DNA from: an uncultured Eubacteriales bacterium
GTDB taxonomy: Bacteria; Bacillota; Clostridia; Oscillospirales; CAG-272
Length of the DNA: 64,000 nucleotides
Assembly (NCBI GenBank): GCA_959601495.1
Contig: CAUGPT010000003.1
Location: forward strand, 2,222 to 66,221
Direction of reading: 5' to 3'
A model generated the notes under the pieces. That model saw only the letters and a program-made list of their open reading frames with translations. It ran no database searches and was not told where the DNA came from. Positions 19,451 to 34,451 of this stretch are shown piece after piece (positions within the stretch are counted from its first letter, which is position 1; each line of letters opens with the position of its first letter). Made by a program: the position numbers and the translations under genes.

Positions 19451-19484
19451 AAAAAAGCGCGGAGCGTTTGCTCCGCGCTTTTTT
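19451..19484 (-). terminator. rho-independent terminator ending the T-box-1 operon
   Basis: AAAAAA-GCGCGGAGC-GTTT-GCTCCGCGC-TTTTTT lies directly after the oxidoreductase gamma subunit stop. Confidence 0.85.
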
Positions 19485-20014
19485 CAATATTCCATACCCC
19501 GGCGTATTGCCGCAAGGTTTGCTTCAAGCAGATCCTGATGGCGGGCGGAAACTACCTTTTTAAGAGCAGCCTCCGTATCATCCGAGGCGACCGCGCCGGT
19601 CTCTTTTATAAACTTGCCCACCATTATCATGTTGGCAAGAGACGGAGTGCCCAGCTCGTTTGCGAGAGCCGTTGCGGGCACATAAAAGACCTTTACATCG
19701 TCGCGGCGCACCTTGCGCTCAACAAGGGTCGAATCCACAAATATGCATCCGCCGCCGACAACTGCGTCCTCGTATTTGTCAAGGGACGGCAGGTTCATTG
19801 CGATGAGCACATCCGGCTTTGAAACGATGGGAGAGCCGACAGGCTCATCCGACAGGATAACGCTGCAGTTCGCGGTACCTCCGCGCATTTCGGGGCCGTA
19901 GGACGGCAGCCAGCTGAGCTGGCGTCCCTCCAGAAGTCCCTTGTACGCAAGAAACTTACCCGCAAACAGCACGCCCTGTCCGCCGAAACCGGCTATCAAA
20001 AGCTGTGTCGTCAT
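19484..20014 (-). CDS. 2-oxoacid:ferredoxin (acceptor) oxidoreductase, gamma subunit
   Basis: MTTQLLIAGFGGQGVLFAGKFLA...GPEMRGGTANCSV is the typical gamma-subunit signature. Confidence 0.85.
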   Translation of the reverse strand: MTTQLLIAGFGGQGVLFAGKFLAYKGLLEGRQLSWLPSYGPEMRGGTANCSVILSDEPVGSPIVSKPDVLIAMNLPSLDKYEDAVVGGGCIFVDSTLVERKVRRDDVKVFYVPATALANELGTPSLANMIMVGKFIKETGAVASDDTEAALKKVVSARHQDLLEANLAAIRRGMEY

Positions 20015-20766
20015 TTTGCTTCGCCCTCCTTTGCGCTTCTGTCCTTGTATACGCCCAGAGGATAGTAGGGTATCATCTTATCGTCTATCCATTTGAGCGC
20101 CGCCTCGGGCGTCATGCCCCAGTTCGTCGGGCAGGACGAAATTACCTCAATAAGAGAGAATCCCTTGCCCTCGACCTGGTTGCGGAACGCTTTTTCGATC
20201 GCCGCCTTTGCGGTCTTTACATTCTTTACATTATTCACGGCAACGCGCGCAAGATACTCGGGACCGTCCAGTGCCGAAAGCATTTCGCACACCTTTATGG
20301 GATAGCCCGCGGTCTTTACGTCGCGTCCGTAGGGAGAGGTCTGCGTGACCTGACCCGGCAGCGACGTGGGCGCCATCTGACCGCCCGTCATACCGTATAT
20401 TGCGTTGTTTACGAATATAACCGTGATGTTTTCGTTTCTCGTAGCGGCGTGAACAGTCTCCGCCATACCGATGGATGCAAGGTCGCCGTCGCCCTGATAC
20501 GTGAATATGATATTTTCCGGCATAGAGCGCTTGAGACCGGTGGCGACAGCCGGAGCACGTCCGTGCGCCGCCTCGACCATATCGCACGCAAAGTAATTAT
20601 ACGCCATAACTGCGCAGCCTACTGGAGCAACACCCACCGTTCTGCCCTCGATGCCGAGAGTGTCTATAGCCTCGGCGACAAGGCGGTGGATTATGCCGTG
20701 GGTGCAGCCGGGGCAGTAATGCAGTTCGGCGTCGGTAAGGCTGTGCGGTTTTTCAAATACTACCAT
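20011..20766 (-). CDS. 2-oxoacid:ferredoxin oxidoreductase, beta subunit (thiamine-pyrophosphate binding)
   Basis: YCPGCTHG...GDGDLASIGMAE...NNAIYGMTGGQ are TPP and Fe-S motifs. 4-nt overlap with the gamma subunit. Confidence 0.85.
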   Translation of the reverse strand: MVVFEKPHSLTDAELHYCPGCTHGIIHRLVAEAIDTLGIEGRTVGVAPVGCAVMAYNYFACDMVEAAHGRAPAVATGLKRSMPENIIFTYQGDGDLASIGMAETVHAATRNENITVIFVNNAIYGMTGGQMAPTSLPGQVTQTSPYGRDVKTAGYPIKVCEMLSALDGPEYLARVAVNNVKNVKTAKAAIEKAFRNQVEGKGFSLIEVISSCPTNWGMTPEAALKWIDDKMIPYYPLGVYKDRSAKEGEAK

Positions 20767-21827
20767 TATTTAAGCCCTCCGTTCATTTTTCTGATGCTTT
20801 CAAGTACCTCGTCGGGAGACGGTATCATACCGCCCGCTCTGAAGCAAAGCTCCACGGGACGGCTGCACTGACAAGAGAGGCGCACATCCTCTATCATCTG
20901 GCCCATGGAAAGCTCGACAGAGATAAATCCGCGAACGTGTGCGGCAGCTTCGGCAATTGCTTTTTTGGGGAACGGCCAAACCGTTATGGGTCTGATGAGT
21001 CCCGCCTTTATACCCTCGCGGCGTGCGGCGGTCACAGCGTTTTTCGCAACTCTTGCAGCAATGCCGAAGGCTACGAGGCAAATGTCCGCATCCTCCGTCA
21101 TGTAGCTTTCCCAACGCGCCTCGTTCTCCTCTATCTGCTTGTAACGCTCAAATCTTTCGATGTTTGTGCGCTCAAGCTCTTCGGGCACAAGATAGAGAGA
21201 GTTTACTATGTTGTGCTCTCTCTTCATACCGGTACCGGTAACAGCCCAGGGCTTTTCGCACGCAGCACTGCTCTCCTCGGGCAGCAGCACGGGCTCCATC
21301 ATCTGACCCATGGTGCCGTCCGCCAGAAGCATTGCGGGCACGCGGTATTTGTCGGAAAGATCAAATGCAAGCGCCGTAAGATCAGCCATTTCCTGAACGG
21401 AATCGGGTGTGAGCACTATGAGATGATAGTCTCCGTGTCCGCCGCCCTTTGTCGCCTGGAAGTAGTCGGACTGCGAGGGCTGGATGCCGCCCAGTCCGGG
21501 GCCGCCGCGCTGTACGTTTACTATAAGCGCGGGCAGGTCTGCGCCCGCTATGTAGGAAATGCCCTCCTGCTTAAGGGATACTCCGGGAGAGGAGGAAGAT
21601 GTCATAACTCTCTTGCCGCTTGCGGACACTCCGTACACCATGTTGATGGCGGATATTTCGCTTTCCGCCTGCAGAAATGTGCCGCCGATCTTCGGCATGC
21701 GCTTTGCCATATATGCCGCAAGCTCTGTCTGAGGCGTTATGGGATATCCGAAATAGTGACGGCAGCCTGCGCGTATCGCCGCCTCGGCGATAGCCTCGTT
21801 GCCCTTCATAAGTACCTTTTCACTCAT
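20766..21827 (-). CDS. 2-oxoacid:ferredoxin oxidoreductase, alpha subunit
   Basis: MKGNEAIAEAAIRAGCRHYFGYPITPQTE is a POR/KOR alpha-type N-terminus. Confidence 0.85.
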   Translation of the reverse strand: MSEKVLMKGNEAIAEAAIRAGCRHYFGYPITPQTELAAYMAKRMPKIGGTFLQAESEISAINMVYGVSASGKRVMTSSSSPGVSLKQEGISYIAGADLPALIVNVQRGGPGLGGIQPSQSDYFQATKGGGHGDYHLIVLTPDSVQEMADLTALAFDLSDKYRVPAMLLADGTMGQMMEPVLLPEESSAACEKPWAVTGTGMKREHNIVNSLYLVPEELERTNIERFERYKQIEENEARWESYMTEDADICLVAFGIAARVAKNAVTAARREGIKAGLIRPITVWPFPKKAIAEAAAHVRGFISVELSMGQMIEDVRLSCQCSRPVELCFRAGGMIPSPDEVLESIRKMNGGLK

Positions 21828-21839
21828 AATCCTCTCACC

Positions 21840-22040
21840 TCACTTCTCTACCGTTATAACGCAATCGGGACACATGGTCGCGCAGAAGGCGCAGCCTATG
21901 CATTTATCCTGATCCGTAACGGCAGCGGGAAAATGGCCTTTTTTGTTGATCTTCGTTTTGTCGATAACGATGATACCGCGGGGACATACGCCGACGCAAA
22001 GTCCGCAGCCCTTGCAGATATCCGTTTTGAAGCTTACCAT
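21840..22040 (-). CDS. 4Fe-4S dicluster ferredoxin-type delta subunit
   Basis: 66 aa with CKGCGLCVGVCP and CIGCAFCATMCP. Start set at the ATG at 22040. The 119-aa track extension overlaps the upstream gene. Confidence 0.8.
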   Translation of the reverse strand: MVSFKTDICKGCGLCVGVCPRGIIVIDKTKINKKGHFPAAVTDQDKCIGCAFCATMCPDCVITVEK

Positions 22041-22065
22041 AGCCTCGTCCTGCCTTTCTGTGATT

Positions 22066-22722
22066 TTATTTCCAATATTTTTTCTGCAGCTCAAGCGGCA
22101 GAATATCGCCGTGCCCCGAAAGTTCTTCGGCAATATCGCGCCTTGCCGACGTAAACGCGACGGGCACGCCGGAAAGCTCCGAGAGCCGCTGTGCGGCACC
22201 GAAGGTCTCGATAACGTGCTGCGCCGCTGTTTCCTCGCCGAGATTTGAATTGTTTACTATACCCGTGACGGGCACGCCGCCCGCCGCCTCCACCTCGCGC
22301 ATGACGCAAAGAGCGTCCTCGGCGCTTCTTGTCAGCGGGCGGTAGAAGTTTACCACATACAGGTTTTCAAAATTGTTCTCTTCCCGTATGGCGGGCGCGA
22401 ATCTGCCGACGGCATATGCGCCGCTGTCGTCTCCGCCCACGTCTATGACCGCGTGCCGCTCTCTGTTCTGCACAACTGAGTACATCTCGGAGGGCAGAGT
22501 GGGCAGATCCACGTTTGTGTTCGCAAACGGCAGCGATATGACCGAAACGCCCGCGCGCCGCAGTTTTTCCTCGCTGTCTTTTGTGCGGAAATACGGGTTT
22601 ACTATGTCAAGATCGGCTATCACCGTGTCGTATCCGAGCGAGTGGAGCCGCAGGGCATAGTTTACCGCAATGTTAGTTTTGCCGCTGCCGTAATGGCCGC
22701 AGAAAAGAGTAAGCCTTTTCAT
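22066..22722 (-). CDS. MinD/ParA/CooC-like P-loop ATPase (ATP-binding protein)
   Basis: Deviant Walker A CGHYGSGKTNIAVN plus DLDIVNPYF. Embedded between ilvE and the oxidoreductase genes. Confidence 0.7.
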   Translation of the reverse strand: MKRLTLFCGHYGSGKTNIAVNYALRLHSLGYDTVIADLDIVNPYFRTKDSEEKLRRAGVSVISLPFANTNVDLPTLPSEMYSVVQNRERHAVIDVGGDDSGAYAVGRFAPAIREENNFENLYVVNFYRPLTRSAEDALCVMREVEAAGGVPVTGIVNNSNLGEETAAQHVIETFGAAQRLSELSGVPVAFTSARRDIAEELSGHGDILPLELQKKYWK

Positions 22723-23816
22723 TATTTGTTAAGACCGAGGGGGTATGTCCAGCCCATAAAGTCCTCGACGGTGCCGGTCTGTATGCCGTACAAAGTGTCG
22801 TAAAGCTTCTGGGAAAGCGCGCCGACCTTGCCGTCGGCAACGGTCATATCCTTGCCCTCGATGCAAAGCCAGCCGATAGGAGAAATTACCGCCGCGGTGC
22901 CGCTTGCGAATATCTCCTTAAGTGTGCCGTCCTTGCTCGCAGCCTGAATTTCGTCAATGGAGAGCTTGCGCTCGCTGACCTTGACGCCCCAGTGCTTCAG
23001 CAGTCTTATAACGGAATCTCTCGTAATTCCGGGGAGTATCGTGCCGGAGTCCAGAGGCGCGGTTATCACCTCGTCGCCGATATAGAAGAACGCGTTGGAC
23101 GTGCCTATCTCCTCAACATACTTGTGCTCTGCAGCGTCAAGCCACAAAACGTCCTTGCAGTTGTACTTCATTGCGTCCTGAGAAGCGCGCATACCGCCGC
23201 CGTAGTTGCCGCCGACCTTGGCATATCCCGTGCCGCCGCGCGCCGCGCGGATGTATTTATCCTGAACATATATACGCGTGGTTGAAAGTCCGCCGTCGTT
23301 TGCGGCATAGTAAGAACCTGTGGGGCTGAGAATTATCATAAAGCGGTAGTGCTTTGCGGGAAGCACGGAGAAGGAGACCTCATCGCCGAAAATGAAGGGG
23401 CGAACATACAGTGCCGTACCGGGTGCATGAGGTACCCAGTCGATATCCTCTTTGATAACGGCGCGTACCGCCGCAACAAGAAGATCGTCGGGCAGCTCGG
23501 GAATGCACATACGCTCGTTTGTTCTCTTCATTCTCGCAACGTTCATGTCGGGTCTGAAAAGCTGAATGTCGCCGTCGGGAGTGCGGTATGCCTTCATACC
23601 CTCGAACATCATCTGCGCGTAGTGCAGAACGCAGGATGCGGGCTCGATGAGAATAGGCTCGTGGGGAACGACTCTGCCGTCGTGCCAGCCCTCGCCCTCA
23701 TCATAGTCCATTACAAACATATGATCCGTAAAGTATTTCGCAAAGCCCAGTTTTGTTTCGTCCTCGGGACGCTTTTTGGGATGTGTCGTTCTCGTTACGG
23801 GAAAAACGTAGTTCAT
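22722..23816 (-). CDS. ilvE: branched-chain amino acid aminotransferase
   Basis: 364 aa class IV aminotransferase pattern: LHYAQMMFEGMKAYR...GGTGYAKVGGNY...GITRDS. Confidence 0.85.
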   Translation of the reverse strand: MNYVFPVTRTTHPKKRPEDETKLGFAKYFTDHMFVMDYDEGEGWHDGRVVPHEPILIEPASCVLHYAQMMFEGMKAYRTPDGDIQLFRPDMNVARMKRTNERMCIPELPDDLLVAAVRAVIKEDIDWVPHAPGTALYVRPFIFGDEVSFSVLPAKHYRFMIILSPTGSYYAANDGGLSTTRIYVQDKYIRAARGGTGYAKVGGNYGGGMRASQDAMKYNCKDVLWLDAAEHKYVEEIGTSNAFFYIGDEVITAPLDSGTILPGITRDSVIRLLKHWGVKVSERKLSIDEIQAASKDGTLKEIFASGTAAVISPIGWLCIEGKDMTVADGKVGALSQKLYDTLYGIQTGTVEDFMGWTYPLGLNK

Positions 23817-23846
23817 GATATTTTCTCCTTTATATATTGATAAAAA

Positions 23847-24635
23847 TTATATACTGTATAATTCGCGTCTGCGGTCGGCAAACACGTTTATGCTGTCTCG
23901 TATACCGCCGAGCACCGACATATCGCAGTCGGCGCAGATTATCTCCTCGCCGCATCCCGCTTTTGACAGAACGCCGCCAAGAGGATCGTATATGACGGAA
24001 GAGCCGCCGTATACCGTCTCGCCGGCAGTTCCGCAGGAATTGCACAGCGCAAGAAACATCTGATTTTCTATTGCCCGCGCTCTTGTAAGCGCTTCAAGCT
24101 GCATCGTGCGGACACTCGGCCACTGCGAAACAAGGAAAAGCACGTCAAGGGGGACCTCGGCGCTCATTGTGCGAGCCGCCTCGGGAAAGCGGATGTCATA
24201 GCATATAAGCACGCCGCACCGCACGCCGTCAAGGGTGAAGGTGCAGAAATGATCGCCCGCCCTGAAATACTCATGCTCGCCCATGGGGGTGAAAAGATGA
24301 GTTTTGTCGTACGATGCAATGCACTCGCCGCTTCTGTCAAAAACATACGAAGTGTTGTACACTTTTCCGCCGCGGGCGTCCGAAACGCTGCCCGCCACTA
24401 TGTTAACGCCGAATTCTTTCGCCGCGCCGCCGATCTCGCGTCTGACCCTCTCGCCGTCCTTGTCGGAAAGAGCGGAAAGCCCCTCTTTCGGGAAAAAGCC
24501 CGTGTTCCACGTTTCGGGAAGCACACAGACATCGCAGCCGTCGGCGCATGCTTTTTCGATAAGCCGTTTTGCGGCATCGAAATTTTCATCCGGCGCCGCA
24601 AGCCGCATATTCATCTGAATACATGATATTTTCAT
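23847..24635 (-). CDS. carbon-nitrogen hydrolase family protein (nitrilase / omega-amidase-like)
   Basis: The Glu-Lys-Cys triad context is present: VLPETWNTGF, YDKTHLF, VLICYDIRFPE. Confidence 0.8.
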   Translation of the reverse strand: MKISCIQMNMRLAAPDENFDAAKRLIEKACADGCDVCVLPETWNTGFFPKEGLSALSDKDGERVRREIGGAAKEFGVNIVAGSVSDARGGKVYNTSYVFDRSGECIASYDKTHLFTPMGEHEYFRAGDHFCTFTLDGVRCGVLICYDIRFPEAARTMSAEVPLDVLFLVSQWPSVRTMQLEALTRARAIENQMFLALCNSCGTAGETVYGGSSVIYDPLGGVLSKAGCGEEIICADCDMSVLGGIRDSINVFADRRRELYSI

Positions 24636-24662: not shown

Positions 24663-26945
24663 TTACAGTCGGTTTCTTTGTATTTTTCCGGTCGAAGTTT
24701 TGGGCAGCTCGTCGCGGAACACGACGAGGCGGGGATATTTGTAAGGAGCCGTATGTGTCTTGACGTAGTTCTGAATTTCTTTTTTCAGCTCTTCCGTCGG
24801 CTCCGTGCCCTTTGTAAGCACCACGCTTGCCTTTACTATCTGACCGCGCACCTCGTCGGGGGCTGCGGAAACTCCGCATTCAAGCACATAAGGCAGCTCC
24901 ATGATAACGCTTTCTATCTCGAAAGGTCCTATGCGGTATCCCGATGACTTGATAATGTCGTCCACTCTGCCCACATACCAGTAGAAGCCGTCCTCATCGC
25001 GCCAGGCGGTGTCGCCCGTATGGTAGAAGCCGTCGTGCCGGACTTCTTTTGTCTTTTCCTCATCGCCGTAGTAGCCGGTAAAGAGTCCGCAGGGCGCGCC
25101 TTCCGATACGTCAATGACGATCTCGCCGACCTCGCCGTCGGGCACAGGCTCGCCGTTTGCGTCAACAAGGGAGACCTTGTAGATAGGCGCGGGCTTGCCC
25201 ATGGAGCCTATCTTGTGCGGCGCGCCGCGCAGGTTGCCGATGACCATTGTAGTCTCGGACTGACCGAAGCCCTCAATTATCTGAAGCCCGGTCGCCTTTT
25301 CAAACTGACGGTACACCTCGGGGTTCAGCGCTTCTCCAGCAGTCGTCATGTGCTTGACGCTTGAAAGATCATACTTTGTAAGATCCTCTTTTATCATCAT
25401 GCGCAGCATTGTCGGCGGTGCGCAGAAGGTGGTAATTTGATATTTTTTGAACATGGGCAGTATATCGGCAGCGTCAAAACGGTCAAAGTCGTATACGAAC
25501 GTTGCCGCCTCGCAAAGCCACTGACCGTAAAGCTTGCCCCACATTGCCTTTGCCCAGCCCGTATCGGATATGGTAAAGTGCAGACCGTCGGGGTCGCAGC
25601 AGTGCCAGTATTTTGCCGTATGGAAATGCCCGAGGGCGTATTTGTAGTTGTGCGCCGCGATCTTCGGATATCCGGAAGTTCCGGATGTGAAGAACATGAG
25701 CATAAGATCGTCGCCGCCGGGCGCATCCGCCGGGCGCTCGTAGTGAGAGCTGAAAAGACGGTATTCGTCGTCAAAGCTTCTCCATCCCTCGCGACTTGCG
25801 CCGACAAGCAAAAGATTTTTCATTTTGCCGTAAGTCTTGCAGGCGGCCTCGATCTCCGCTGCCGTGTCGGGAGTGCTTATGACCGTTTCAATGCCCGCGG
25901 CATTGAAACGGTATTCGAAATCGTGCTGCTGAAGCTGACAGACTGCGGGAATCGCTATCGCTCCCAGCTTATTCAGTCCCAGCATCGCAAACCAGAACTC
26001 GTATGCGCGCCGCAGCACAAGCATTACTCTGTCTCCGCGCTTTATGCCGAGAGAGCTGAAATAGTTTGCGCATCTTGCGGATGCCTTTTTCATATTCTCA
26101 AAGGTAAAGCGGCGCTCGGTCCTGTCGCGGGCAATATGCAGCATTGCAAGTTTATCCGGGCTGCGGGATGCAAGTTCATCGACAATGTCAAAAGCGAAAT
26201 TGAAATGCTCCGTATTTTTGAATGTTATCGAAAGAGGCGTTCCGCGCTCGTTTTTCACGACGTCGACGTATTCGCTGTAGATACGTTTTTTCGTATCCTG
26301 CCTTACGGTCTTCGTCTCCTCGATGCTGCGCGCGGGCGCAAGCTCGGGGATAGGCTCGCCGGAGGGGTTAAGCACTATTGCGTAGAACTCACAGTCCTCG
26401 CCGTTTACGGCTATCATGCCGTGAGGTGTTGACGAATCGTAATATACGCTGTCGCCGCGGCCGAGAACGACGCTGTGCTCGCCTATCTGAACACGCAGAT
26501 GGCCCGAGATAACTATATCAAGCTCCTGCCCTTCGTGAGTGGTAAGCTCAATGTCGGCGCTCTGCGCCGATGGGTCATACGCGCTGCGGACGTACAGCGG
26601 TTCAGCTATCCTGTTCTGAAAAGCGTATGCCAGATTGTAGTACGTCATGCCGTGGGCGTTGGCTATCTCCTGCCCCTCGCCGCTTCTTGTAAGCGTAAAG
26701 GAGCGCAGAGTCGGGCTGTGACCCTCGATTATATCGGTAACGTCAACGTTGAAGGCAAGAGCGCAGCGGTATATGAACGCAAAGTTCAAATCGCTTCTGC
26801 CCGCCTCGCATTCAAGGTATTCGGCGACGGTGACATCCGTTTTCTCCGCCATTTCCTCGGGGCTGAGCCCCTCGATCTCGCGCAGCTCGCGTATGCGCGC
26901 CGCCATCTCGCCTATTTTGTAGTCAAGAGCCGTGATCTGTTTCAT
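24663..26945 (-). CDS. XRE-HTH + cupin + AMP-binding (acyl-CoA synthetase/ligase) fusion protein, paralog 1
   Basis: N-terminus IRELREIEGLSPEEMAEKTDVTVAEYLECEAG (HTH_3), then a cupin (HEGQELDIVISGHLRVQIG...GDSVYYDSSTPHG). AMP-binding motifs follow: FFTSGTSGYPK, GEAL, YHTGD, GRVDDIIKSSGYRIGPFEIE, GKIQR. Start at ATG 26945. Confidence 0.85.
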   Translation of the reverse strand: MKQITALDYKIGEMAARIRELREIEGLSPEEMAEKTDVTVAEYLECEAGRSDLNFAFIYRCALAFNVDVTDIIEGHSPTLRSFTLTRSGEGQEIANAHGMTYYNLAYAFQNRIAEPLYVRSAYDPSAQSADIELTTHEGQELDIVISGHLRVQIGEHSVVLGRGDSVYYDSSTPHGMIAVNGEDCEFYAIVLNPSGEPIPELAPARSIEETKTVRQDTKKRIYSEYVDVVKNERGTPLSITFKNTEHFNFAFDIVDELASRSPDKLAMLHIARDRTERRFTFENMKKASARCANYFSSLGIKRGDRVMLVLRRAYEFWFAMLGLNKLGAIAIPAVCQLQQHDFEYRFNAAGIETVISTPDTAAEIEAACKTYGKMKNLLLVGASREGWRSFDDEYRLFSSHYERPADAPGGDDLMLMFFTSGTSGYPKIAAHNYKYALGHFHTAKYWHCCDPDGLHFTISDTGWAKAMWGKLYGQWLCEAATFVYDFDRFDAADILPMFKKYQITTFCAPPTMLRMMIKEDLTKYDLSSVKHMTTAGEALNPEVYRQFEKATGLQIIEGFGQSETTMVIGNLRGAPHKIGSMGKPAPIYKVSLVDANGEPVPDGEVGEIVIDVSEGAPCGLFTGYYGDEEKTKEVRHDGFYHTGDTAWRDEDGFYWYVGRVDDIIKSSGYRIGPFEIESVIMELPYVLECGVSAAPDEVRGQIVKASVVLTKGTEPTEELKKEIQNYVKTHTAPYKYPRLVVFRDELPKTSTGKIQRNRL

Positions 26946-27014
26946 TTGTTTTTCCCTCCGTGCGTTGATGTGTGACAGATGCAAAGCGCATTCGGCGCCC
27001 CGCACAGCAATTGG

Positions 27015-27300
27015 AACGAAAAAAGCACCCGTCCCAAAGCTTTGGATTACTTTGAGACGAGTGCCGAAACATCAGCTACCCGCGGTACCACTCAAATTGC
27101 GCCGTAAATAGACGCCTCTCAGGCTCTGTCAAGCCGTATGCATTTCACGCAGCAGTTACGGGAAGGCTCTACTTGCCCGCATGGGCTTTCTTCCTTCCGG
27201 CTCAGAAGCTACAACCGACGCACCGTTTCCGACAGCTCACACCGACCGCTGCCTCTCTGCAGGACGTTTTGCATCAATACTCTTCGTCTTTGCCTTTACA
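27015..27300 (-). promoter_or_regulatory. T-box riboswitch leader 1 (Stem I with AGAGAG/GGTG distal elements, Stem III, T-box sequence, terminator)
   Basis: Minus strand contains AATTTGAGTGGTACCGCGGG (plus 27079-27098). The terminator GCACTCGTCTCAAAG...CTTTGGGACGGGTGCTTTTTT lies at plus 27019-27064. The 5' end has a GA-motif and AGAGTA S-turn. Confidence 0.85.
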
Positions 27301-27305
27301 TTCTC

Positions 27306-27334
27306 AGTATAATCCAACACTATTCAGTTGTCAA
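27306..27334 (-). promoter_or_regulatory. sigma-A promoter of T-box leader 1
   Basis: Minus strand: TTGACA, 17 nt, TATACT. Only 20 nt downstream of the paralog-2 stop codon. Confidence 0.7.
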
Positions 27335-27353
27335 GAGGGAAAACGAATTTTTA

Positions 27354-29621
27354 TCAGAGCTTGTTTCTCTGAATTTTTCCGCTGGTGGTCTTGGGCAGCT
27401 CGTCGCGGAACACCACAAGACGGGGATATTTATAAGGCGCGGTATGCGACTTTACATAGTTCTGAATTTCTTTCTTCAGTTCTTCCGTCGGCTGCGTACC
27501 CTTTGTAAGCACAATGCTTGCCTTTACTATCTGTCCGCGAACCTCGTCGGGAGCGGCGGAAACTCCGCATTCAAGCACATAAGGCAGTTCCATGATAACG
27601 CTTTCGATCTCGAAAGGCCCTATGCGGTATCCCGAGGACTTGATGATATCGTCCACTCTGCCCACGTACCAGAAGTAGCCGTCCTCGTCGCGCCATGCGG
27701 TGTCGCCCGTATGGTACACGCCGCCGCGCATACATTCCGCGGTCTTTTCGGGCTCCTTGTAGTATTCGTTGAACAGTCCCACGGGAGCGCCCTTGTCAAG
27801 GCGGATGACGATCTCACCCGTTTCACCGCAGGGAACGCTGTGGCCGTCCGCATCAACGATGTCAACATCGTACTGGGGAGAGGGCTTGCCCATGGAACCG
27901 GGACGCACCTCTGTGCCCACAAGGTTTGCAACGGTAAGCGTAGTCTCCGTCTGACCGAAGCCCTCGGCGATGCTGAGGCCCGTCGCCGCCATAAACTGTT
28001 TTGCGATCTCGGGATTGAGCGCTTCGCCGGCGGTGGTCATATGCTTTATTGTAGAGAAATCGTAGCTTGCAAGATCCTCTTTCATCATCATGCGCAGCAT
28101 TGTAGGCGGCGCGCAGAATGTGGTGACTTTGTATTTGCCCAGAAGCGGCATGATGTCGCGGGCGTTGAAGCGGTCGAAATCATATACGAACACCGCGCCC
28201 TCGCACATCCACTGACCGTACAGCTTACCCCAGAGGGACTTACCCCAGCCTGTGTCGGATATGGTAAAGTGCAGCCCGTCGGGCTCGCAGCAGTGCCAGT
28301 ACTTGGCGGTCACGAAATGACCGAGCGCATAAGTATGGCTGTGCTCGACCATTTTAGGCTCGCCCGTTGTGCCTGAGGAGAAGAACATAAGCGCCGCGTC
28401 GCGCCCGCAGGGGGTATCCTCCGTGCGGGAGAAGTGGCTTGAATACAGTGCGTACTCGGAGTCGAAGTCGTGCCAGCCGGGGCGGTTTTCGCCCACAAGT
28501 ATCATATTTTTAACGGCGGGACACTGCTCCGCGGCTCTGCGCGCTATCTCCGCCGTGTCTCCCTTTGCCGTGCAAAGAAGAGTGGTAACTCCGGCAGACT
28601 TGAAGCGGTATACAAAATCGTGCTCCTGAAGCTGGAACGTTGCGGGGATCGCAACCGCGCCGAGCTTGTGCAGAGCTATCATCGCAAACCAGAACTGATA
28701 GTGACGGCGGAGCACAAGCATTACCTTGTCGCCCGCGCCGATACCGAGGGATTTGAAGTAGTTCGCGCATCTTGCGGACTCTTTCTTTATATCGGAGAAC
28801 GTAAAGCGTCTCTCGTTCTTGTTCTCGTCAAGATATACCATGGCGAGCTTGTCCGGGTATCTGTCCGCGATAGCGTCCACAACGTCAAAGCCGAAGTTGA
28901 AGCTGTCCGTGTTTTTAAAGTCTATTTTCTTGAGAACTCCGTTTTCATCCTCCGCTGCGTCAACAAACTTCTCGCAGAGAAGTCCCGTTGCGGGGCGCAG
29001 GGACACAACGCTGCTGCGCACCTCGGATTCTTTTGTTTCCTCACCCGGCAGCACCACCGCGCAGAAAACGCACTCTTTGCCGTCAACGGCAATCATTCCG
29101 TGGGGTATGGAGGAGTTGTAGTATATGCTGTCGCCCTCGTGCAGAACCTCTTTATTCGTACCCACCTGTACAAGAAGCGATCCGGAAACGATAAGGTCAA
29201 ATTCCTGTCCGCTGTGCTTTGTAAGGTGTATGGGCTTGTTCTGAAGTTCGGGAGAATACTCATAGCGCACCCAGTACGGCTCTGCTATCTTGTGGCGGAA
29301 CTCGGGGGCAAGGTTTGCAATGCTGATGCCCTCCTCCTTTGCCGTCTGCTGACCCTTGCCGCGTCTTGTAACGGTGTAGGACGACAGACGTGCGCCGCGT
29401 CCCTCAAGAAGCTCGGTAAGCTCAATGCCGAAGGCAAGCGCGCATTTATGTATAAATGTAAACGGCAGATCGGTGCGACATGCTTCATAGTCGCGGTATT
29501 CATCGAGGGAGACCTCGGTCTTCTCCGCCATCTCTTCTTCCGTAAAGCCCATGACTTCACGCATTTCGCGTATTCTGTATGCGATCTCGTGAAGCTGCGT
29601 CATTGTGGACTGTGTGCTCAT
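27354..29621 (-). CDS. XRE-HTH + cupin + AMP-binding (acyl-CoA synthetase/ligase) fusion protein, paralog 2
   Basis: Same three-domain architecture as 24663-26945. GGAGG RBS. The C-terminal ~100 aa are nearly identical to paralog 1. Confidence 0.85.
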   Translation of the reverse strand: MSTQSTMTQLHEIAYRIREMREVMGFTEEEMAEKTEVSLDEYRDYEACRTDLPFTFIHKCALAFGIELTELLEGRGARLSSYTVTRRGKGQQTAKEEGISIANLAPEFRHKIAEPYWVRYEYSPELQNKPIHLTKHSGQEFDLIVSGSLLVQVGTNKEVLHEGDSIYYNSSIPHGMIAVDGKECVFCAVVLPGEETKESEVRSSVVSLRPATGLLCEKFVDAAEDENGVLKKIDFKNTDSFNFGFDVVDAIADRYPDKLAMVYLDENKNERRFTFSDIKKESARCANYFKSLGIGAGDKVMLVLRRHYQFWFAMIALHKLGAVAIPATFQLQEHDFVYRFKSAGVTTLLCTAKGDTAEIARRAAEQCPAVKNMILVGENRPGWHDFDSEYALYSSHFSRTEDTPCGRDAALMFFSSGTTGEPKMVEHSHTYALGHFVTAKYWHCCEPDGLHFTISDTGWGKSLWGKLYGQWMCEGAVFVYDFDRFNARDIMPLLGKYKVTTFCAPPTMLRMMMKEDLASYDFSTIKHMTTAGEALNPEIAKQFMAATGLSIAEGFGQTETTLTVANLVGTEVRPGSMGKPSPQYDVDIVDADGHSVPCGETGEIVIRLDKGAPVGLFNEYYKEPEKTAECMRGGVYHTGDTAWRDEDGYFWYVGRVDDIIKSSGYRIGPFEIESVIMELPYVLECGVSAAPDEVRGQIVKASIVLTKGTQPTEELKKEIQNYVKSHTAPYKYPRLVVFRDELPKTTSGKIQRNKL

Positions 29622-29649: not shown

Positions 29650-29925
29650 AATTAAAAAACCCGTCCCAAGAAAAACTCTTGAGACGGGAAACTTACTTAT
29701 TACCCGCGGTACCACTCAAATTGCGTCTTTCGACGCCACTCAGACTCTGACAAGCCGTATGCATTTACGCAGCAGTAACGTAAAGAACTAAGGCGGACCG
29801 CCCTCATTCTTTCAGCTCGGAAGTGATGGGAAATTAAACACCTGGGCTGTCGGGATCGCACCGTCCCCGACTCTCTGAAAGCTTGCATGCTTTTCCGTCT
29901 TCGTCATAGCCTTTATTTATTCTTT
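29650..29925 (-). promoter_or_regulatory. T-box riboswitch leader 2
   Basis: AATTTGAGTGGTACCGCGGGTA (plus 29701-29722), Stem III GCGTC-GAAA-GACGC, and terminator TTTCCCGTCTCAAGAG...CTTGGGACGGGTTTTTT (plus 29654-29690). Confidence 0.85.
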
Positions 29926-29931
29926 TTCTAA

Positions 29932-29960
29932 AGTATAGCACCGCGCGGCGGGCGTGTCAA
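29932..29960 (-). promoter_or_regulatory. sigma-A promoter of T-box leader 2
   Basis: Minus strand: TTGACA, 17 nt, TATACT. Confidence 0.7.
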
Positions 29961-30035
29961 GTAGTTTTTTATGAGAAAAAATAACAAAACGGCGATTTGT
30001 TATGCGCGAATGGCATACCGATTGCACAAATCGGA

Positions 30036-32504
30036 CTATTCAATGCCGAGAAGCTTTACGGTCTCCTCGCGCATTTTATATTTGAGTATCTTGCCTGCAG
30101 CGTTCATGGGGAACGTTTTTGTAAATATAAAGTACCTGGGAACCTTGTGCGTTGCCATGCCGGACATACCGAAGGCTTTCATCTCCGTCTCGTCGGCACT
30201 CTCGCCGTCGTTCAGTATGACCCATGCGCAGGCCTCCTCGCCGTACTTCTTGTCCGGTACGCCCACGACCTGTACGTCGCGCACCTTGGGATTTGTGAGG
30301 TAATACTCCTCTATCTCGCGGGGGTATATGTTCTCGCCGCCGCGGATTATCATGTCCTTAAGGCGCCCCGTCACCTTGTAATATCCGTCGGGGGTGCGGC
30401 AGCATATATCTCCGGAGTGCAGCCAGCCCTCGCTGTCGATAGCCTGTGCGGTAGCACGGGGCATTTTGTAGTAGCCCTTCATAACGTTGAAGCCGCGAAC
30501 CACAAATTCGCCCGCTTCCCCGTCGCCGAGAACGGCGCCGGTCTCGGGGTCGATTATCCTGCACTCAACTCCGGGGAAAGCGCTGCCAACGGTCTCAACT
30601 CTGTGGTCGAGATCCTCATTGACTTCTCCCATGGTGCATCCGGGGGAGGACTCTGTCTGACCGTAGACGGAGAGTATTTCCGTCATATTCATTTCCGCTG
30701 CCGCACGGCGCATAAGCTCGGGCGGGCAGTTTGCGCCCGCCATAATGCCAGTACGCATATATGAGAAATCCGTTTTCGCAAAATCCTCATGCGCAAACAT
30801 TGCGATAAACATTGTAGGCACGCCGTTGAAGCAGGTTATCTTCTCCGCCGTGATGCACGCAAGCGAGGACTTGGGCGAGAAATACGGCAGTGGCGAGAGC
30901 GTGCCGCCGTGGGTCATCATGGACGTCATGGAAAGTACCATGCCGAAGCAGTGGAACATGGGCACCTGTATCATCATACGGTCCGCCGTTGACATATCCA
31001 TTCTGTCGCCTATGATCTTGCCGTTGTTTATTATGTTGCTGTGCGTCAGCATGACTCCCTTGGGAAAGCCCGTTGTGCCGGAAGTGTACTGCATATTGGC
31101 AACGTCGCCGGAGCGGACCATGGACGCGCGCCTGCGTACCTCCTCGCGGGGAACCTCGGCGCCCCTCTCGAGCATTTCGTTCCACTCAAGGCAGCCGGGC
31201 ATATTAAAGCCGACGGTCACAACGTTTCTCAGAAACGGCAGCCGCTTTGCGTAAAGGGGCGCGTCGGGCTTTTTCGTTTCAAGCTCGGGGCACAGATCGC
31301 GGATGATCTTGCCGTAGTCCGTATCCTTGCAGTTCTCTATCATTACAAGCGTATGAGTGTCGGACTGGCGCAGAAGGTATTCTATCTCGTGGGTCTTGTA
31401 GGCGGTGTTGACCGTTACAAGCACCGCGCCTATCTTCACAGCCGCCCAGAAGGACAGAAACCACTCAGGCACGTTCGTAGCCCACACAGCGACATGATGC
31501 CCGGGCTTTACGCCGAGGGCTATGAACGCCGCGGCGACCTCATCCACGTCGCGGCGGAACTGGGAATACGTGCGGGTGTAGTCAAGCGTCGTGTATCTGA
31601 AGGCGTACTGGTCCGGATATTTTTCCGCCATAACGTCCAGCACCTGAGAGAACGTCATATCAAGCACATCGTATTTCTTCCAGGGAAATGTACCCGTGCC
31701 CGCGCGGTTCGTATACAGCACTTCCCTGCGGGACGTTCTCGACACCTCGCCCATATAGCTGCAGAACTGTGTCAGAACTATATCGGGATCGTCGATCTCG
31801 TCGTTCCACGCCGCGCATACAAACGAATCGTAGTTGAGAGAGGCAAGCGCTTCGGTAAACTCTCCGCAGGGCAGCTCTCCCTCTCCGATAAGCACGTTGA
31901 CTCCGTCGGCACTGCGGTCTCCCAGTCGGACATAGCGGATGTACGCGCCAAGGTTCGTAATTGTATCCTCCGCGCTTTCATGCGTATCGAAATAAGTGCT
32001 GCGTACATCCCAGCACGCGCCGAGGGCGGCGCTTGCGCATCCGTTGAGAAACGCCACGGTACGCTTGGTGTCGGCAAATCTGCCCACGGTCTCTATAAGA
32101 ATTTCAACATCCTTTTTCTCAGCCGCAGCGCATACCTTTGAGAGCTTTTCGGCAAGACGGCTGTCAGCCTCACCGTCGCTGTCCGCTCCGCAGGCGCGGA
32201 TGATCACACGTCCCGCGCCGGAGGAGTGCGCCATATCAATATATCTTTTCAGAAGCTCGGGCGTAACGTCACCGCCGTCCGCGTCAAACGGACAGGTGAG
32301 CGCCGCCAGCTCAAGCCCTCTGTTATAAAGCTTTCTCTTTGCCTCCGAAACATGCTCCGGACGCAGGATGCTGTCGGAATGACGAATTCTTTCGTCCTCC
32401 GCGTCGGAAATCTCAATGCCAGAAAAGCCGTAGTCGTCGGCATATCTGCAAAGCGACAAAAACGAAGCAAGCCTTACGTTTTCCGTTGAAAAAGTGAGCT
32501 TCAC
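30036..32504 (-). CDS. xylose-isomerase-like TIM barrel (sugar phosphate isomerase/epimerase family) fused to an AMP-dependent acyl-CoA synthetase/ligase
   Basis: The first ~270 aa resemble AP_endonuc_2 / TIM barrel proteins. The remainder carries YTSGTTGFPKGV, GYYK, HSGD, GRLKDMIIRGGENIYPREIE and GKILK. The GTG start overlaps the upstream stop (GTGA). Confidence 0.8.
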   Translation of the reverse strand: MKLTFSTENVRLASFLSLCRYADDYGFSGIEISDAEDERIRHSDSILRPEHVSEAKRKLYNRGLELAALTCPFDADGGDVTPELLKRYIDMAHSSGAGRVIIRACGADSDGEADSRLAEKLSKVCAAAEKKDVEILIETVGRFADTKRTVAFLNGCASAALGACWDVRSTYFDTHESAEDTITNLGAYIRYVRLGDRSADGVNVLIGEGELPCGEFTEALASLNYDSFVCAAWNDEIDDPDIVLTQFCSYMGEVSRTSRREVLYTNRAGTGTFPWKKYDVLDMTFSQVLDVMAEKYPDQYAFRYTTLDYTRTYSQFRRDVDEVAAAFIALGVKPGHHVAVWATNVPEWFLSFWAAVKIGAVLVTVNTAYKTHEIEYLLRQSDTHTLVMIENCKDTDYGKIIRDLCPELETKKPDAPLYAKRLPFLRNVVTVGFNMPGCLEWNEMLERGAEVPREEVRRRASMVRSGDVANMQYTSGTTGFPKGVMLTHSNIINNGKIIGDRMDMSTADRMMIQVPMFHCFGMVLSMTSMMTHGGTLSPLPYFSPKSSLACITAEKITCFNGVPTMFIAMFAHEDFAKTDFSYMRTGIMAGANCPPELMRRAAAEMNMTEILSVYGQTESSPGCTMGEVNEDLDHRVETVGSAFPGVECRIIDPETGAVLGDGEAGEFVVRGFNVMKGYYKMPRATAQAIDSEGWLHSGDICCRTPDGYYKVTGRLKDMIIRGGENIYPREIEEYYLTNPKVRDVQVVGVPDKKYGEEACAWVILNDGESADETEMKAFGMSGMATHKVPRYFIFTKTFPMNAAGKILKYKMREETVKLLGIE

Positions 32505-33901
32505 GCCTGTTCCTCCTCAAAGATTATCTTGTTGAGAGCGTTTACGTACGCTCTTATACTTGCGCCTACAATATCCGTTGAAAGACCGTTGCCGGAGAAC
32601 AGCTTTCCGCCGCTGCGAAGCCTTACTACGGCGTCGCCCAGCGCTTCCTTGCCCTGCGTTACGGCGCGTATCTGAAATGCGTCCAGCTCATAGTGATGAC
32701 CGACGCACTGCTCTATCGCACGGAACGCCGCGTCAATAGGTCCGTCGCCCGTTGCGACGCCCACGGACTTTTCTCCCGCGCGTACCATGGCAACACTTGC
32801 CATGGCGGACGTTATGTTGCTGCTTGTTATATTGTAGCTTTCAAGATGATATGCGGAGGGCGCCTGCATTGCGTTTGACGCAATGATAGCCTCAAGCTCG
32901 GCAGCCCCCACGGAGCCTTTGCGGGCGCATACATCCATAAGCGCGTCATATACCTTGCCGTCGTCCTCGGCGCTCAGCGTGTATCCCAGTTTTTTTGCCG
33001 CTTCGCTGACCTGTGCGGCAGTGCTGTCACCGTGGAGATATATACCGGCGTCGCCGTCGTTCTCCCGCTCCGCAGTGTCAGAGGGATGTGCCGCCTCAAC
33101 GCCGCGCAGAAGCGACGCAACGTCGCTGTAAAGCTCGGTAAGCTTCAGCGATGTGGCAACTCCCATTTCCTCGCCGCGCGCCTCAAGCATTTTCGCAAAT
33201 TTCACGGTATTGAGCGCGTCATCTCCCGCAACGGCGACCTTTACGCCCGACGCACCCGCGCGTATGGCGGCGGCGGCGCAGGCGGCGCCCATGCTGATAG
33301 CGTCGGAGGGACGCACATACACATCTGCCCCGCAGCTTTCCTTTACATATTTGACAAGCGAAGCGATCTCCTCCGGCATTGCCCTGCCCGCGTCGTCGCA
33401 GAGGGTCACGATCTGCGCACCCGCATCCGCGGCACACTTCGCAGCCTTGCACAGAAACGCAACGTCGGCGCGGGTCGCGTCAAGCGCCGCAAACTCCACC
33501 TTGGGGCATTTTGCTTTCGCGGCAGTGCACAGACGGGTGATAAAGTCTGCCATTTTCGCTTCTTTCATATGGTAGCCGTACTCCATTGTAACGGTAGATA
33601 CGGGCAGCGCTATCTGCAGGCAGGGGTCCTTCGCGCCGCGAACGCACTCCCACGCGGCGTCGATCGTTTCCTCGCTGTCGCCCGCGGGGATCGTGACCGT
33701 CGCGTTCTTCACACCCGACGATATGGTTTTATATATTATAGTATCTTCTTTCGGACAGCGCACCGGGGCAAGCTCGATTGCGCCCATGCCGACGGCGTCC
33801 ATGCACGCGGCGACCGCGGTCTTTTCGCGGAAAAGAAGCTCCGCGCCCCTGCTGCGCGCAAGCGCACTGAGAGTATAATCGACAACAACTGTTTTTTTCA
33901 T
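32501..33901 (-). CDS. 2-isopropylmalate synthase / homocitrate synthase family protein (LeuA-like; catalytic motifs appear degenerate, LeuA-dimer regulatory domain retained)
   Basis: HMGL-like barrel followed by the C-terminal ATGDGPIDAAFRAIEQ...GNGLSTDIVGASIRAYVNALNKI. Start at ATG 33901 behind GAGG. The 40-aa track extension runs into the T-box terminator. Confidence 0.75.
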   Translation of the reverse strand: MKKTVVVDYTLSALARSRGAELLFREKTAVAACMDAVGMGAIELAPVRCPKEDTIIYKTISSGVKNATVTIPAGDSEETIDAAWECVRGAKDPCLQIALPVSTVTMEYGYHMKEAKMADFITRLCTAAKAKCPKVEFAALDATRADVAFLCKAAKCAADAGAQIVTLCDDAGRAMPEEIASLVKYVKESCGADVYVRPSDAISMGAACAAAAIRAGASGVKVAVAGDDALNTVKFAKMLEARGEEMGVATSLKLTELYSDVASLLRGVEAAHPSDTAERENDGDAGIYLHGDSTAAQVSEAAKKLGYTLSAEDDGKVYDALMDVCARKGSVGAAELEAIIASNAMQAPSAYHLESYNITSSNITSAMASVAMVRAGEKSVGVATGDGPIDAAFRAIEQCVGHHYELDAFQIRAVTQGKEALGDAVVRLRSGGKLFSGNGLSTDIVGASIRAYVNALNKIIFEEEQA

Positions 33902-33925
33902 GGTAAAACCTCGCTTGTGAAAAAA

Positions 33926-34195
33926 TAGAAAAACCCGCAGAAACCTCTCGGTTTCTGCGGGGTGACTTAACAAATATAAAGCCACGGTACCACCCGCATT
34001 GCCGCTCGCGCGGCCGCTCACAGGCTCAATAAAGCCTTCGGTCTGTCACGGGACCTCCCGGAATCCCTTACACTGCATTTTCGGGGATCCTGCTCCGATA
34101 GGAGACAGCATACGCGGATCCATGCCGTCTCGCACCGACCGACGGCTCTCTGAAAGGCTTGCCGCGAATGCTTAATATCATCATCGCATTTCTTA
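33926..34195 (-). promoter_or_regulatory. T-box riboswitch leader 3 (probable Leu, CUC specifier candidate)
   Basis: K-turn GATGA, AGAGAG bulge, distal loop GGTCGGTGCGA, T-box AATGCGGGTGGTACCGTGGC (plus 33981-34000), and terminator CCCCGCAGAAACC-GAGA-GGTTTCTGCGGG-TTTTT (plus 33926-33964). Confidence 0.85.
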
Positions 34196-34200
34196 CGGTG

Positions 34201-34229
34201 ATTATAGCAAAGAAGCCATGCTTTGTCAA
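34201..34229 (-). promoter_or_regulatory. consensus sigma-A promoter of T-box leader 3
   Basis: Minus strand: TTGACA, 17 nt, TATAAT (perfect hexamers). Confidence 0.75.
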
Positions 34230-34331
34230 CAAAATTGCGGCAAAATTCCCATTTTTGTGTCAAGTGACAAAAATAGCGAAAAAGGCACCCCGCGCGCGAT
34301 AATTTTGCACATGGAAAACACGGCGCGGCGC

Positions 34332-34451
34332 GGGCTGCCGCACATTCCCTTCTCACGGCGTGGGCTGCCGCACATTCCCTTCTCACGGCACGGCGCGGGC
34401 TGCGCACATTCCCTTCTCACGGCGCGGGCTGCCGCACATTTTCTTCTCCAC
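34332..34451. repeat. four tandem copies of a ~29-nt GC-rich unit (period 30-35 nt)
   Basis: GGGCTGCCGCACATTCCCTTCTCACGGCG at 34332 and 34362, then variants at 34397 and 34427. Only 1-6 nt separate the units. Confidence 0.8.

Follow-up and report, generated by a model that had tools for sequence, protein, structure and literature searches.

An acidic XRE-like helix-turn-helix and cupin module tied to putative branched short-chain acyl-CoA ligases in a T-box-controlled gene cluster of an uncultured Eubacteriales bacterium

Why should an acyl-CoA ligase carry at its N-terminus the helix-turn-helix (HTH) and cupin domains of an XRE family transcriptional regulator? The question is raised by two tandem genes, here called A and B, in a stretch of 64,000 nucleotides (nt) from an uncultured Eubacteriales bacterium (Bacillota; Clostridia; Oscillospirales; CAG-272; GenBank assembly GCA_959601495.1, contig CAUGPT010000003.1, positions 2,222 to 66,221 of the forward strand), the whole of which is referred to below as the window. 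A preliminary description of this DNA, made from the letters alone, had read both products as an HTH and cupin sensor module joined to a complete adenylate-forming ligase and had proposed either a bifunctional repressor-enzyme comparable to BirA or an enzyme tuned by a ligand bound to the cupin. Comparative analysis of the locus points to the module as a dedicated partner of the Macs-type ligase family, which would ancestrally have been a separate small protein in methanogens and many Firmicutes, and leans tentatively towards a ligand-sensing regulatory module acting on the ligase, with a probability of roughly 40%.

The anatomy of the two proteins (Table 1) bore out that first reading of HTH, cupin and complete ligase in two tandem paralogs of 760 and 755 amino acids (aa). 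Pairwise alignment of A and B gave 62% identity across 753 columns, with the N-terminal module aligned over its entire length. In Pfam searches the ligase parts of A and B matched AMP-binding with 209.8 and 222.3 bits (cut-off 29.9; E 7e-62 and 1e-65) and AMP-binding_C with 75.9 and 77.2 bits (cut-off 24.5; E about 1e-21 each), and the cupin parts matched Cupin_2 with 46.6 and 39.1 bits (cut-off 27.2). The HTH of A passed the cut-offs of both HTH_3 (26.7 bits, cut-off 23) and HTH_31 (28.7 bits, cut-off 27); no HTH model of Pfam reached its cut-off in B, the best being HTH_19 with 26.5 bits (cut-off 30.2). An AlphaFold2 model of residues 1-200 of A, built on a 121-sequence alignment, consisted of five helices followed by a beta-barrel, with a predicted local distance difference test score (pLDDT) of 91.3 and a predicted template modelling score (pTM) of 0.79. 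Gene A starts with an ATG after a GGAGG ribosome-binding site; the GTG at 27005 given as its start by mechanical calling of open reading frames falls within the T-box terminator and was set aside. A gene-calling or frameshift artefact as the source of the fusion was also rejected, since at least 80 species-level genomes and 120 protein clusters carry it unbroken.

Regarding the spread of the fusion, at least 595 relatives came to light when one genome was scanned for each species, and the locus comparisons reported here cover the best 80. These are full-length fusions, a few of them cut by contig ends, from metagenome-assembled genomes of gut and rumen Clostridia, their hosts belonging to Acutalibacteraceae, Oscillospiraceae, Ruminococcus, Christensenellales and one bin labelled Spirochaetales. 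HMMER searches with residues 1-235 recovered not only fused proteins but also many of about 185 aa, which are 30-46% identical across both domains and which their sources call only 'XRE family transcriptional regulator (with cupin sensor)'. Ten of these stand-alone members were located in their contigs by exact-protein look-up. For nine of the ten, from Methanolobus, Methanobrevibacter, Hydrogenoanaerobacterium, Zongyangia, Christensenellales, Acutalibacteraceae and three others, a co-directional gene that encodes an AMP-binding ligase of about 550 aa follows after a gap of 3-48 nt; the sole exception is the Paludicola copy, which has no ligase directly downstream. The partner ligases (six tested) are 50-58% identical to the ligase of A and B, and the alignment starts at fusion residue 214-248. 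The presence of a separate gene directly ahead of an orthologous ligase thus indicates that the fusion is an end-to-end join of a conserved and ancient gene pair.

The fused N-terminal modules all fall in one clade of a neighbour-joining tree calculated without bootstrap, which suggests a single fusion event followed by duplication into valine (Val) and isoleucine (Ile) types. In the archaeon Methanolobus sp. ZRKC3 (locus L081, 5001-10096), the HTH-cupin gene is followed after a gap of 12 nt by a gene encoding a 556-aa ligase, a ferredoxin-like (Fer4) gene and genes encoding the POR_N/PFOR_II and TPP/POR (VOR-like) subunits, and this archaeal cluster argues that a ligase-VOR salvage module with an HTH-cupin partner predates the Clostridial fusion.

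Regarding the ligase part, the core motifs of ANL enzymes were all detected in A and B, namely the A3 P-loop (S/T-S-G-T-x-G-x-PK), A5, A7 (YHTGD), A8 (GRVDDIIKSSG) and the catalytic lysine of A10 in PKTxxGKI. The best solved relative is MacsMa of M. acetivorans (PDB 3ETC), with E values of 6e-175 for A and 5e-189 for B over chain residues 52-571, and the best NCBIfam model is MbcS, with 432.6 and 440.4 bits, respectively; the equivalog cut-off of that model (850 bits) is reached by neither protein, so that they are not equivalogs of MbcS. In the ligase the Ile and Val types have just three fixed differences, at 465 (A/G), 468 (M/L) and 480 (A/G), and two of the three fall in the segment DTGW(A/G)K(A/S)(M/L)W. 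At position 465, presumably an acyl-pocket site as judged from the alignment to MacsMa and from the Acs pocket, glycine is common to the Ile type (B) and MacsMa, which would fit a substrate one carbon larger. MacsMa prefers 2-methylbutyrate and is active in vitro without any partner protein (PMC10455477), and purified MbcS of S. aureus selectively activates 2-methylbutyrate and isobutyrate while handling isovalerate poorly (PMC10026030). Homology strongly supports the placement of A and B as putative paralogous branched short-chain acyl-CoA synthetases of the Macs/MbcS type.

Three complete T-box leaders were detected on the minus strand (33955-34193, 29677-29916 and 27050-27299; 83-90 bits, E about 1e-17) by a permissive Rfam scan in E-value mode, confirming the three T-boxes with ligases downstream that had been noticed at the outset. 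The default scan called no T-box in the window, because these scores lie just under the gathering score of 93 bits. All three leaders have a near-consensus promoter ahead of them and a terminator hairpin at their end. The codon read from the specifier loop is AUC for at least 41 of the 44 orthologous leaders of first (Ile-type) genes, GUA or GUC for at least 36 of the 44 orthologous leaders of second (Val-type) genes and in most single-copy loci, and CUC (leucine, Leu) ahead of an IPMS-like gene, both in the window and across related loci; these Ile, Val and Leu specifiers are conserved over about 80 species-level loci. Split genes can be led by a T-box too: in two Firmicutes loci (L088 and L094) a T-box with an Ile specifier stands ahead of the HTH-cupin gene in an operon of HTH-cupin and ligase genes, and in a third (L093) a T-box, its specifier not read, probably precedes the HTH-cupin gene. 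Promoters and leaders strongly support transcription of A and B each from its own strong promoter and through its own T-box, with B predicted to answer uncharged tRNA-Ile and A uncharged tRNA-Val. From homology, from the specifier codons and from the Ala/Gly exchange at the presumed acyl-pocket site, B would be a 2-methylbutyrate--CoA ligase of the Ile branch and A an isobutyrate--CoA ligase of the Val branch.

Regarding the N-terminal module, the mechanism held most probable is control of the enzyme itself. The ligand of the cupin would be a small molecule that differs between the branches, held probably at a His-Glu-His metal site; the amino acid at the end of the pathway, the acid that is activated and the CoA ester of that acid are candidates. 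The acidic HTH-like domain would provide a surface for protein-protein or intramolecular contact or for dimerisation. The module would thereby exert fast, protein-level control over the ATP-consuming first committed step, atop the slower control by the T-box; an ancestrally separate gene would have been fused to the ligase gene in one clade of gut and rumen Clostridia, and the fused gene would then have been duplicated. This reading is favoured because the HTH is acidic at DNA-contact positions, no shared operator was found, transcription is already controlled by T-boxes and the split gene is tightly coupled to the ligase, directly upstream of it. There is a precedent in an anaerobe, B. fragilis, in which cupin (pirin) proteins bind and modulate PFOR (PMC11304471).

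The acidity of the HTH is a property of the whole family. Over 238 family members the mean net charge of the HTH is -4.9 to -6.7, compared with +1 in PuuR and +5 in SutR (both references taken from E. coli K-12), and residues 28-56, which comprise helix 2, the turn, helix 3 and the following loop, carry a net charge of -3 to -8 in all but few members, compared with 0 in PuuR and SutR; DdrO, the best solved sequence match, is near neutral over the same stretch. Asp52 is invariant in 238 of 238 members. Positions 30, 31, 41 and 42 align with polar DNA-contact residues of PuuR, SutR and DdrO and are mostly Glu or Asp, the aligned residues of PuuR and SutR being Ser, Gln, Arg, His, Lys or Thr, so that the family lacks the polar or basic side chains expected where an XRE HTH contacts DNA, at the N-termini of helix 2 and helix 3 and in the loop ahead of the conserved Pro. 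Degeneration specific to the fusion was rejected as a cause of this acidity, as stand-alone members are equally acidic (isoelectric point below 7 in 117 of 117, median 5.1).

An operator common to the fused genes was sought in the 110 nt upstream of Stem I for 97 of them. These promoters have canonical -35 and extended -10 boxes with variable spacers, and no dyad is common to them apart from a T5-6/A5-6 tract just upstream of the -35 box in the Ile type. The tract (T5-6 N1-5 A5-6) lies directly upstream of -35 in 22 of 39 Ile-type promoters (29961-29990 in the window; also loci L006, L010, L011, L014, L020, L022 and others) and was rejected as an operator, since it matches the UP-element consensus or a terminator tail. 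The best palindromes in fused-gene promoters are only slightly longer than those in shuffled controls.

Both results bear on the alternative that survives best, a bifunctional repressor-enzyme or 'trigger enzyme' (as BirA, NadR and PutA), in which the HTH would bind an operator at its own or other promoters, for example that of a transporter, and DNA binding would be switched by what the cupin binds or by the stage that the ligase has reached in catalysis, giving transcriptional feedback atop the T-box. Such an enzyme would have to bind DNA with Glu and Asp at the contact positions and an invariant Asp52, and no common dyad stands upstream of the 97 fused genes despite strong conservation of helix 3. 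No fixed paralog differences were found in helix 2 or helix 3. A DNA-binding domain produced at 1:1 with an enzyme under a consensus promoter would also be unusual, as would, for a local repressor, a regulator-enzyme pair kept from methanogens to Clostridia at 35-45% identity.

Several observations nevertheless weigh against control of the enzyme, and most of them would suit a repressor-enzyme. The experimentally characterised XRE-cupin proteins are all DNA-binding local repressors of adjacent metabolic genes, and the architecture is otherwise known only from such repressors, acting on palindromes beside their own genes (PMC7901475); the split gene order, which looks like a regulator as the first gene of its operon, fits this paradigm equally well. 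In Foldseek searches with the model of the module, the top match was 1Y9Q (template modelling score, TM, 0.66-0.73), which is annotated as an HTH_3 transcriptional regulator. The fold-stabilising residues of the HTH are retained (Arg17, Arg22, Glu47 and Gly49, including the Arg22/Glu47 pair), and its within-type conservation of 0.72-0.79 speaks of purifying selection. Operator-like repeats are present at the promoters of three split loci that have no T-box, as candidate operators: TATCTGAT three times, bracketing a TATAAT -10 box (L087, 3780-4000), AGTCAAC three times (L086, 3780-4000) and an imperfect 9-bp palindrome across the -10 box (L082, 4780-5000). An acyl-CoA ligase, FadD1 of P. aeruginosa, has been reported as a transcription factor (PMC12754631). 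The charge comparison, moreover, rests on three reference regulators. Contact between module and ligase is putative, the full-length AlphaFold2 model being too poor (pTM 0.39, with low pLDDT in the linker) to show how one would dock on the other. The module is, finally, dispensable for catalysis, since MacsMa works in vitro alone (PMC10455477). Of the two candidate mechanisms first proposed, the acidic HTH, the lack of a shared operator, the existing T-box control and the split pair lean towards the ligand-tuned enzyme, and the repressor comparable to BirA is the main rival, somewhat less favoured.

Regarding the cupin, all 121 sequences compared have His137, Glu141 and His175, in keeping with a predicted cupin metal site; the triad is not diagnostic, because PuuR, a proven repressor, keeps an equivalent His/Glu/His pattern. 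The motif AEPxxV (aa 114-119) belongs to a conserved extra segment of about 13 aa that is not found in PuuR and SutR. Eleven paralog-specific positions were counted in the 200-aa module, five of them at residues 97-117, compared with only three in the 515-aa ligase, and this concentration points to branch-specific functional divergence of the cupin side.

The Foldseek matches ranked from second to about 41st include HppE, Psf4, HEPD and MPnS (HppE-type TM 0.41-0.49, 17-21% identity, probability 1.0). The XRE-like helical domain of HppE does not bind DNA, and the presence of such enzymes among the fold matches indicates that transcription factors are not the only proteins built from an HTH-like domain and a cupin. 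HppE has its 2-His-1-Glu iron site at His138/Glu142/His180, nearly the same positions as those of the triad of A. A metal-dependent catalytic or substrate-handling domain of the HppE type, with a chemical step tied to the activation of the branched acid, would draw on this invariant triad and on the high rank of these enzymes as proof that an HTH-like plus cupin protein can be an enzyme; it is improbable, as the conversion of a branched acid to its CoA ester needs no additional chemistry, HppE-type chemistry requires O2 or H2O2 and the hosts are strict anaerobes, the similarity to HppE is low (17% identity at the TM values given), PuuR has an equivalent triad, and MacsMa and MbcS function alone in vitro. 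That the module is only a scaffold for dimerisation or stability, or what is left of a neighbouring regulator gene that was captured when its stop codon was lost and is now slowly decaying, with no sensing, is hardly to be expected either: dimers are common among cupins, the fusion simply joins two adjacent genes end to end, the T-boxes already supply regulation and roughly one fused homologue in nine has no Pfam HTH match on record, but the module is intact in both paralogs across the same 80 or more species-level genomes, its within-type conservation is 0.72-0.80 compared with 0.52-0.64 in the linker, the triad and the family-specific AEPxxV segment persist, and the concentration of fixed paralog differences in the module argues for functional divergence and not decay.

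Control of the enzyme by the module may be extended from A and B to their kin. The acidic XRE-cupin subfamily as a whole would then consist of regulatory subunits or domains of branched short-chain acyl-CoA ligases, not of transcription factors, imposing substrate or end-product feedback on the first committed step from branched-chain fatty acids (BCFAs) to branched-chain amino acids (BCAAs); this wider claim is put forward more hesitantly still.

Table 1. Features of the A/B locus and of the neighbouring genes, in coordinates of the window.
Feature	Position	Strand	Details
Gene A	24663-26945	minus	HTH-cupin + acyl-CoA ligase fusion, 760 aa
A, XRE-like HTH domain	26721-26909	minus	aa 13-75; net charge -8; helix 3 = TVAEYLECEAG; Asp52 invariant
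A, cupin barrel	26367-26699	minus	aa about 83-193; His137/Glu141/His175 invariant; AEPLYV (aa 114-119) family-specific; paralog-specific residues at 97-117
A, linker	26211-26366	minus	Pro/Glu-rich, about aa 194-215, then N-terminal extension of ligase; poorly conserved
A, AMP-forming acyl-CoA ligase	24666-26210	minus	aa 246-760; complete ANL core motif set
A, T-box leader	27024-27299	minus	includes terminator hairpin 27024-27065; specifier GUA (Val), next nt G; 83.1 bits, E 4.8e-17
A, promoter	27306-27334	minus	TTGACA-17-TATACT
Gene B	27354-29621	minus	HTH-cupin + acyl-CoA ligase fusion, 755 aa
B, XRE-like HTH domain	29400-29588	minus	aa 12-74; net charge about -8
B, cupin barrel	29046-29378	minus	aa about 82-192; His/Glu/His triad conserved
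B, AMP-forming acyl-CoA ligase	27357-28904	minus	aa 240-755
B, T-box leader	29660-29916	minus	includes terminator hairpin 29660-29688; specifier AUC (Ile), next nt A; 83.1 bits, E 4.8e-17
B, promoter	29932-29960	minus	TTGACA-17-TATACT with TG extension, 11/12 matches; T6/A6 tract like UP element immediately upstream
Third unit, upstream (whole)	30036-34229	minus	
Third unit, promoter	34201-34229	minus	
Third unit, T-box leader	33934-34193	minus	specifier CUC (Leu)
Third unit, IPMS-like gene	32501-33904	minus	
Third unit, TIM-barrel-ligase fusion	30036-32504	minus	
Genes downstream of A (whole stretch)	19484-24635	minus	co-directional with A
CN-hydrolase	23847-24635	minus	
IlvE	22722-23816	minus	
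P-loop NTPase	22066-22722	minus	
VOR delta	21840-22040	minus	
VOR alpha/VorB	20766-21827	minus	
VOR beta	20011-20766	minus	
VOR gamma	19484-20014	minus	

Regarding the genes around A and B, VorB and IlvE scored above their curated cut-offs (554 bits, cut-off 399, and 447 bits, cut-off 307, respectively). The recurrent order in related genomes is Ile-type ligase, Val-type ligase, P-loop NTPase, VOR delta, alpha, beta and gamma, and IlvE, often with the Leu unit near, and synteny is found in about 55 of the 80 loci. With the 2-oxoisovalerate:ferredoxin oxidoreductase (VOR) and the branched-chain aminotransferase IlvE downstream of the ligases, the cluster most likely makes BCAAs from BCFAs, a salvage route in which the branched acid would be activated to its acyl-CoA, reductively carboxylated by VOR to the 2-oxo acid and converted to the amino acid by IlvE. 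Reductive carboxylation leading from 2-methylbutyrate to isoleucine is a long-accepted route in rumen anaerobes (PMC2812497). On gene content and specifier codons, this predicted pathway role and the division of Ile and Val between B and A are well supported, and the simplest reading of T-boxes and gene content together is that the salvage route is induced by starvation.

Two genes of the downstream stretch are less readily placed. The P-loop NTPase (218 aa) gave weak ParA/NUBPL and CbiA matches and no NCBIfam match, and in almost every related locus that reaches beyond the ligase its gene comes after the ligase (or IlvE) and before VOR delta; a role in Fe-S supply to VOR or in the maturation of VOR is conceivable. 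The best NCBIfam match of the CN-hydrolase is the amidohydrolase PRK10438 (YafV, an omega-amidase), under its cut-off. This gene is confined to the window and about five related loci (L007, L025, L056, L057 and L072), in which ilvE is 70-87% identical to the copy of the window (no ilvE was detected in L056); in loci that lack the CN-hydrolase, ilvE is about 50% identical to the window copy and is placed after VOR gamma. The CN-hydrolase might pull a glutamine-dependent transamination.

The third unit, upstream of B, may be the isovalerate/leucine branch. Its IPMS-like gene is divergent, the best leuA models giving 185-228 bits, far under their cut-offs. In the product of the second gene (822 aa) a TIM barrel resembling xylose isomerase (AP_endonuc_2) precedes an AMP-binding ligase of another type (PRK12583-like, 650 bits, cut-off 832), a further N-terminal fusion onto a ligase; the pair of IPMS-like and TIM-barrel-ligase genes recurs in about 25 of the 80 related loci. 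Just upstream of the promoter of the Leu T-box lies a GC-rich tandem repeat (34319-34448) with four copies of about 30 nt, 83% matches and short hairpins. A tRNA gene on the plus strand (2686-2759) was the sole Rfam match of the whole window at the gathering threshold.

Compared with known systems, the module shares its two-domain architecture, its fold and the cupin His/Glu/His pattern with the XRE-cupin regulators (PuuR and SutR; ErfA, PsdR and PauR of Pseudomonas; 1Y9Q), which are also encoded beside metabolic genes (PMC7901475). It differs from them in its strongly acidic HTH with invariant Asp52, in the extra AEPxxV segment of about 13 aa, in being fused to, or encoded directly ahead of, one ligase family, and in that a search of the 97 fused-gene promoters gave no shared operator. 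Over its full length the ligase part (aa about 246-760) can be aligned with MacsMa and with the MbcS model, and it has the same ANL motifs and, by inference, similar substrates, whereas the characterised enzymes are single-module and the product would here feed VOR for amino acids and not the priming of fatty acids. With HppE, Psf4 and HEPD it has in common the five-helix XRE-like domain and a cupin with a 2-His-1-Glu site (here predicted); similarity is low, however, oxygen or peroxide chemistry is implausible in strict anaerobes, and those enzymes are not linked to ligases.

BirA, NadR and PutA are alike in logic only, having an N-terminal DNA-binding-type domain on an enzyme, which in BirA is adenylate-forming, so that a single polypeptide could link catalysis with regulation. 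BirA is a biotin protein ligase with a class II aminoacyl-tRNA synthetase-like fold, a winged helix, no separate sensor domain and a known operator. The comparison with BirA drawn in the preliminary description therefore holds as an analogy of logic and fails by fold, since A and B combine an ANL ligase with an XRE HTH according to Pfam, NCBIfam and 3ETC. Closer in arrangement are IlvN/IlvH, the small subunit of AHAS, and the MbtH-like proteins of nonribosomal peptide synthetase adenylation, in which a small partner is encoded beside the enzyme and sometimes fused to it, though the folds (ACT and MbtH) are unrelated to HTH-cupin. IlvN binds AHAS and confers valine feedback on the first committed step of BCAA synthesis. 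FadD1 of P. aeruginosa is an ANL ligase that regulates transcription, but it has no HTH-cupin module, a leucine-zipper motif being proposed instead (PMC12754631), and the pirin-PFOR pair of B. fragilis is an instance of a cupin regulating an enzyme of anaerobic central metabolism by direct binding, although pirins are bicupins, have no HTH and are unfused (PMC11304471).

The families of both halves are already known, as are enzyme-regulator fusions as a kind. The fused proteins are named in their sources only as 'AMP-binding protein' or 'acetyl-CoA synthetase', and literature searches on the fusion or the gene cluster found nothing relevant, in agreement with the earlier remark that this is not a characterised family. 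An acidic XRE-cupin subfamily tied to Macs-type ligases in split or fused form, within a T-box-gated cluster leading from BCFAs to BCAAs, thus appears to be undescribed in the literature searched. The split-gene form, the assignment of the paralogs to Ile and Val and the role of the cluster, from BCFA to BCAA through VOR and IlvE, go beyond what the preliminary description contained.

Many cellulolytic and other gut and rumen anaerobes require isobutyrate, 2-methylbutyrate and isovalerate, and the genes for the conversion of these acids and their control are poorly defined. The locus offers a gene-level model in three T-box-gated units, with Ile and Val ligases, VOR and IlvE, and a Leu unit, and, through gene fusion as well as strict adjacency, it ties to a single enzyme family the many proteins now called 'XRE family transcriptional regulator' in an acidic subfamily that spans hundreds of species of archaea and bacteria. 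Should the module act on the enzyme, XRE-cupin annotations would have to be reread and a new kind of allosteric control would be added for adenylate-forming enzymes; it would be the first XRE-cupin scaffold exapted for protein-level control of an enzyme, analogous in function to IlvN for AHAS. If the module binds DNA, it would provide a new example of an enzyme-repressor in the ANL family. Either outcome bears on the supplementation of branched acids in ruminant nutrition and on metabolic engineering of BCFAs and BCAAs.

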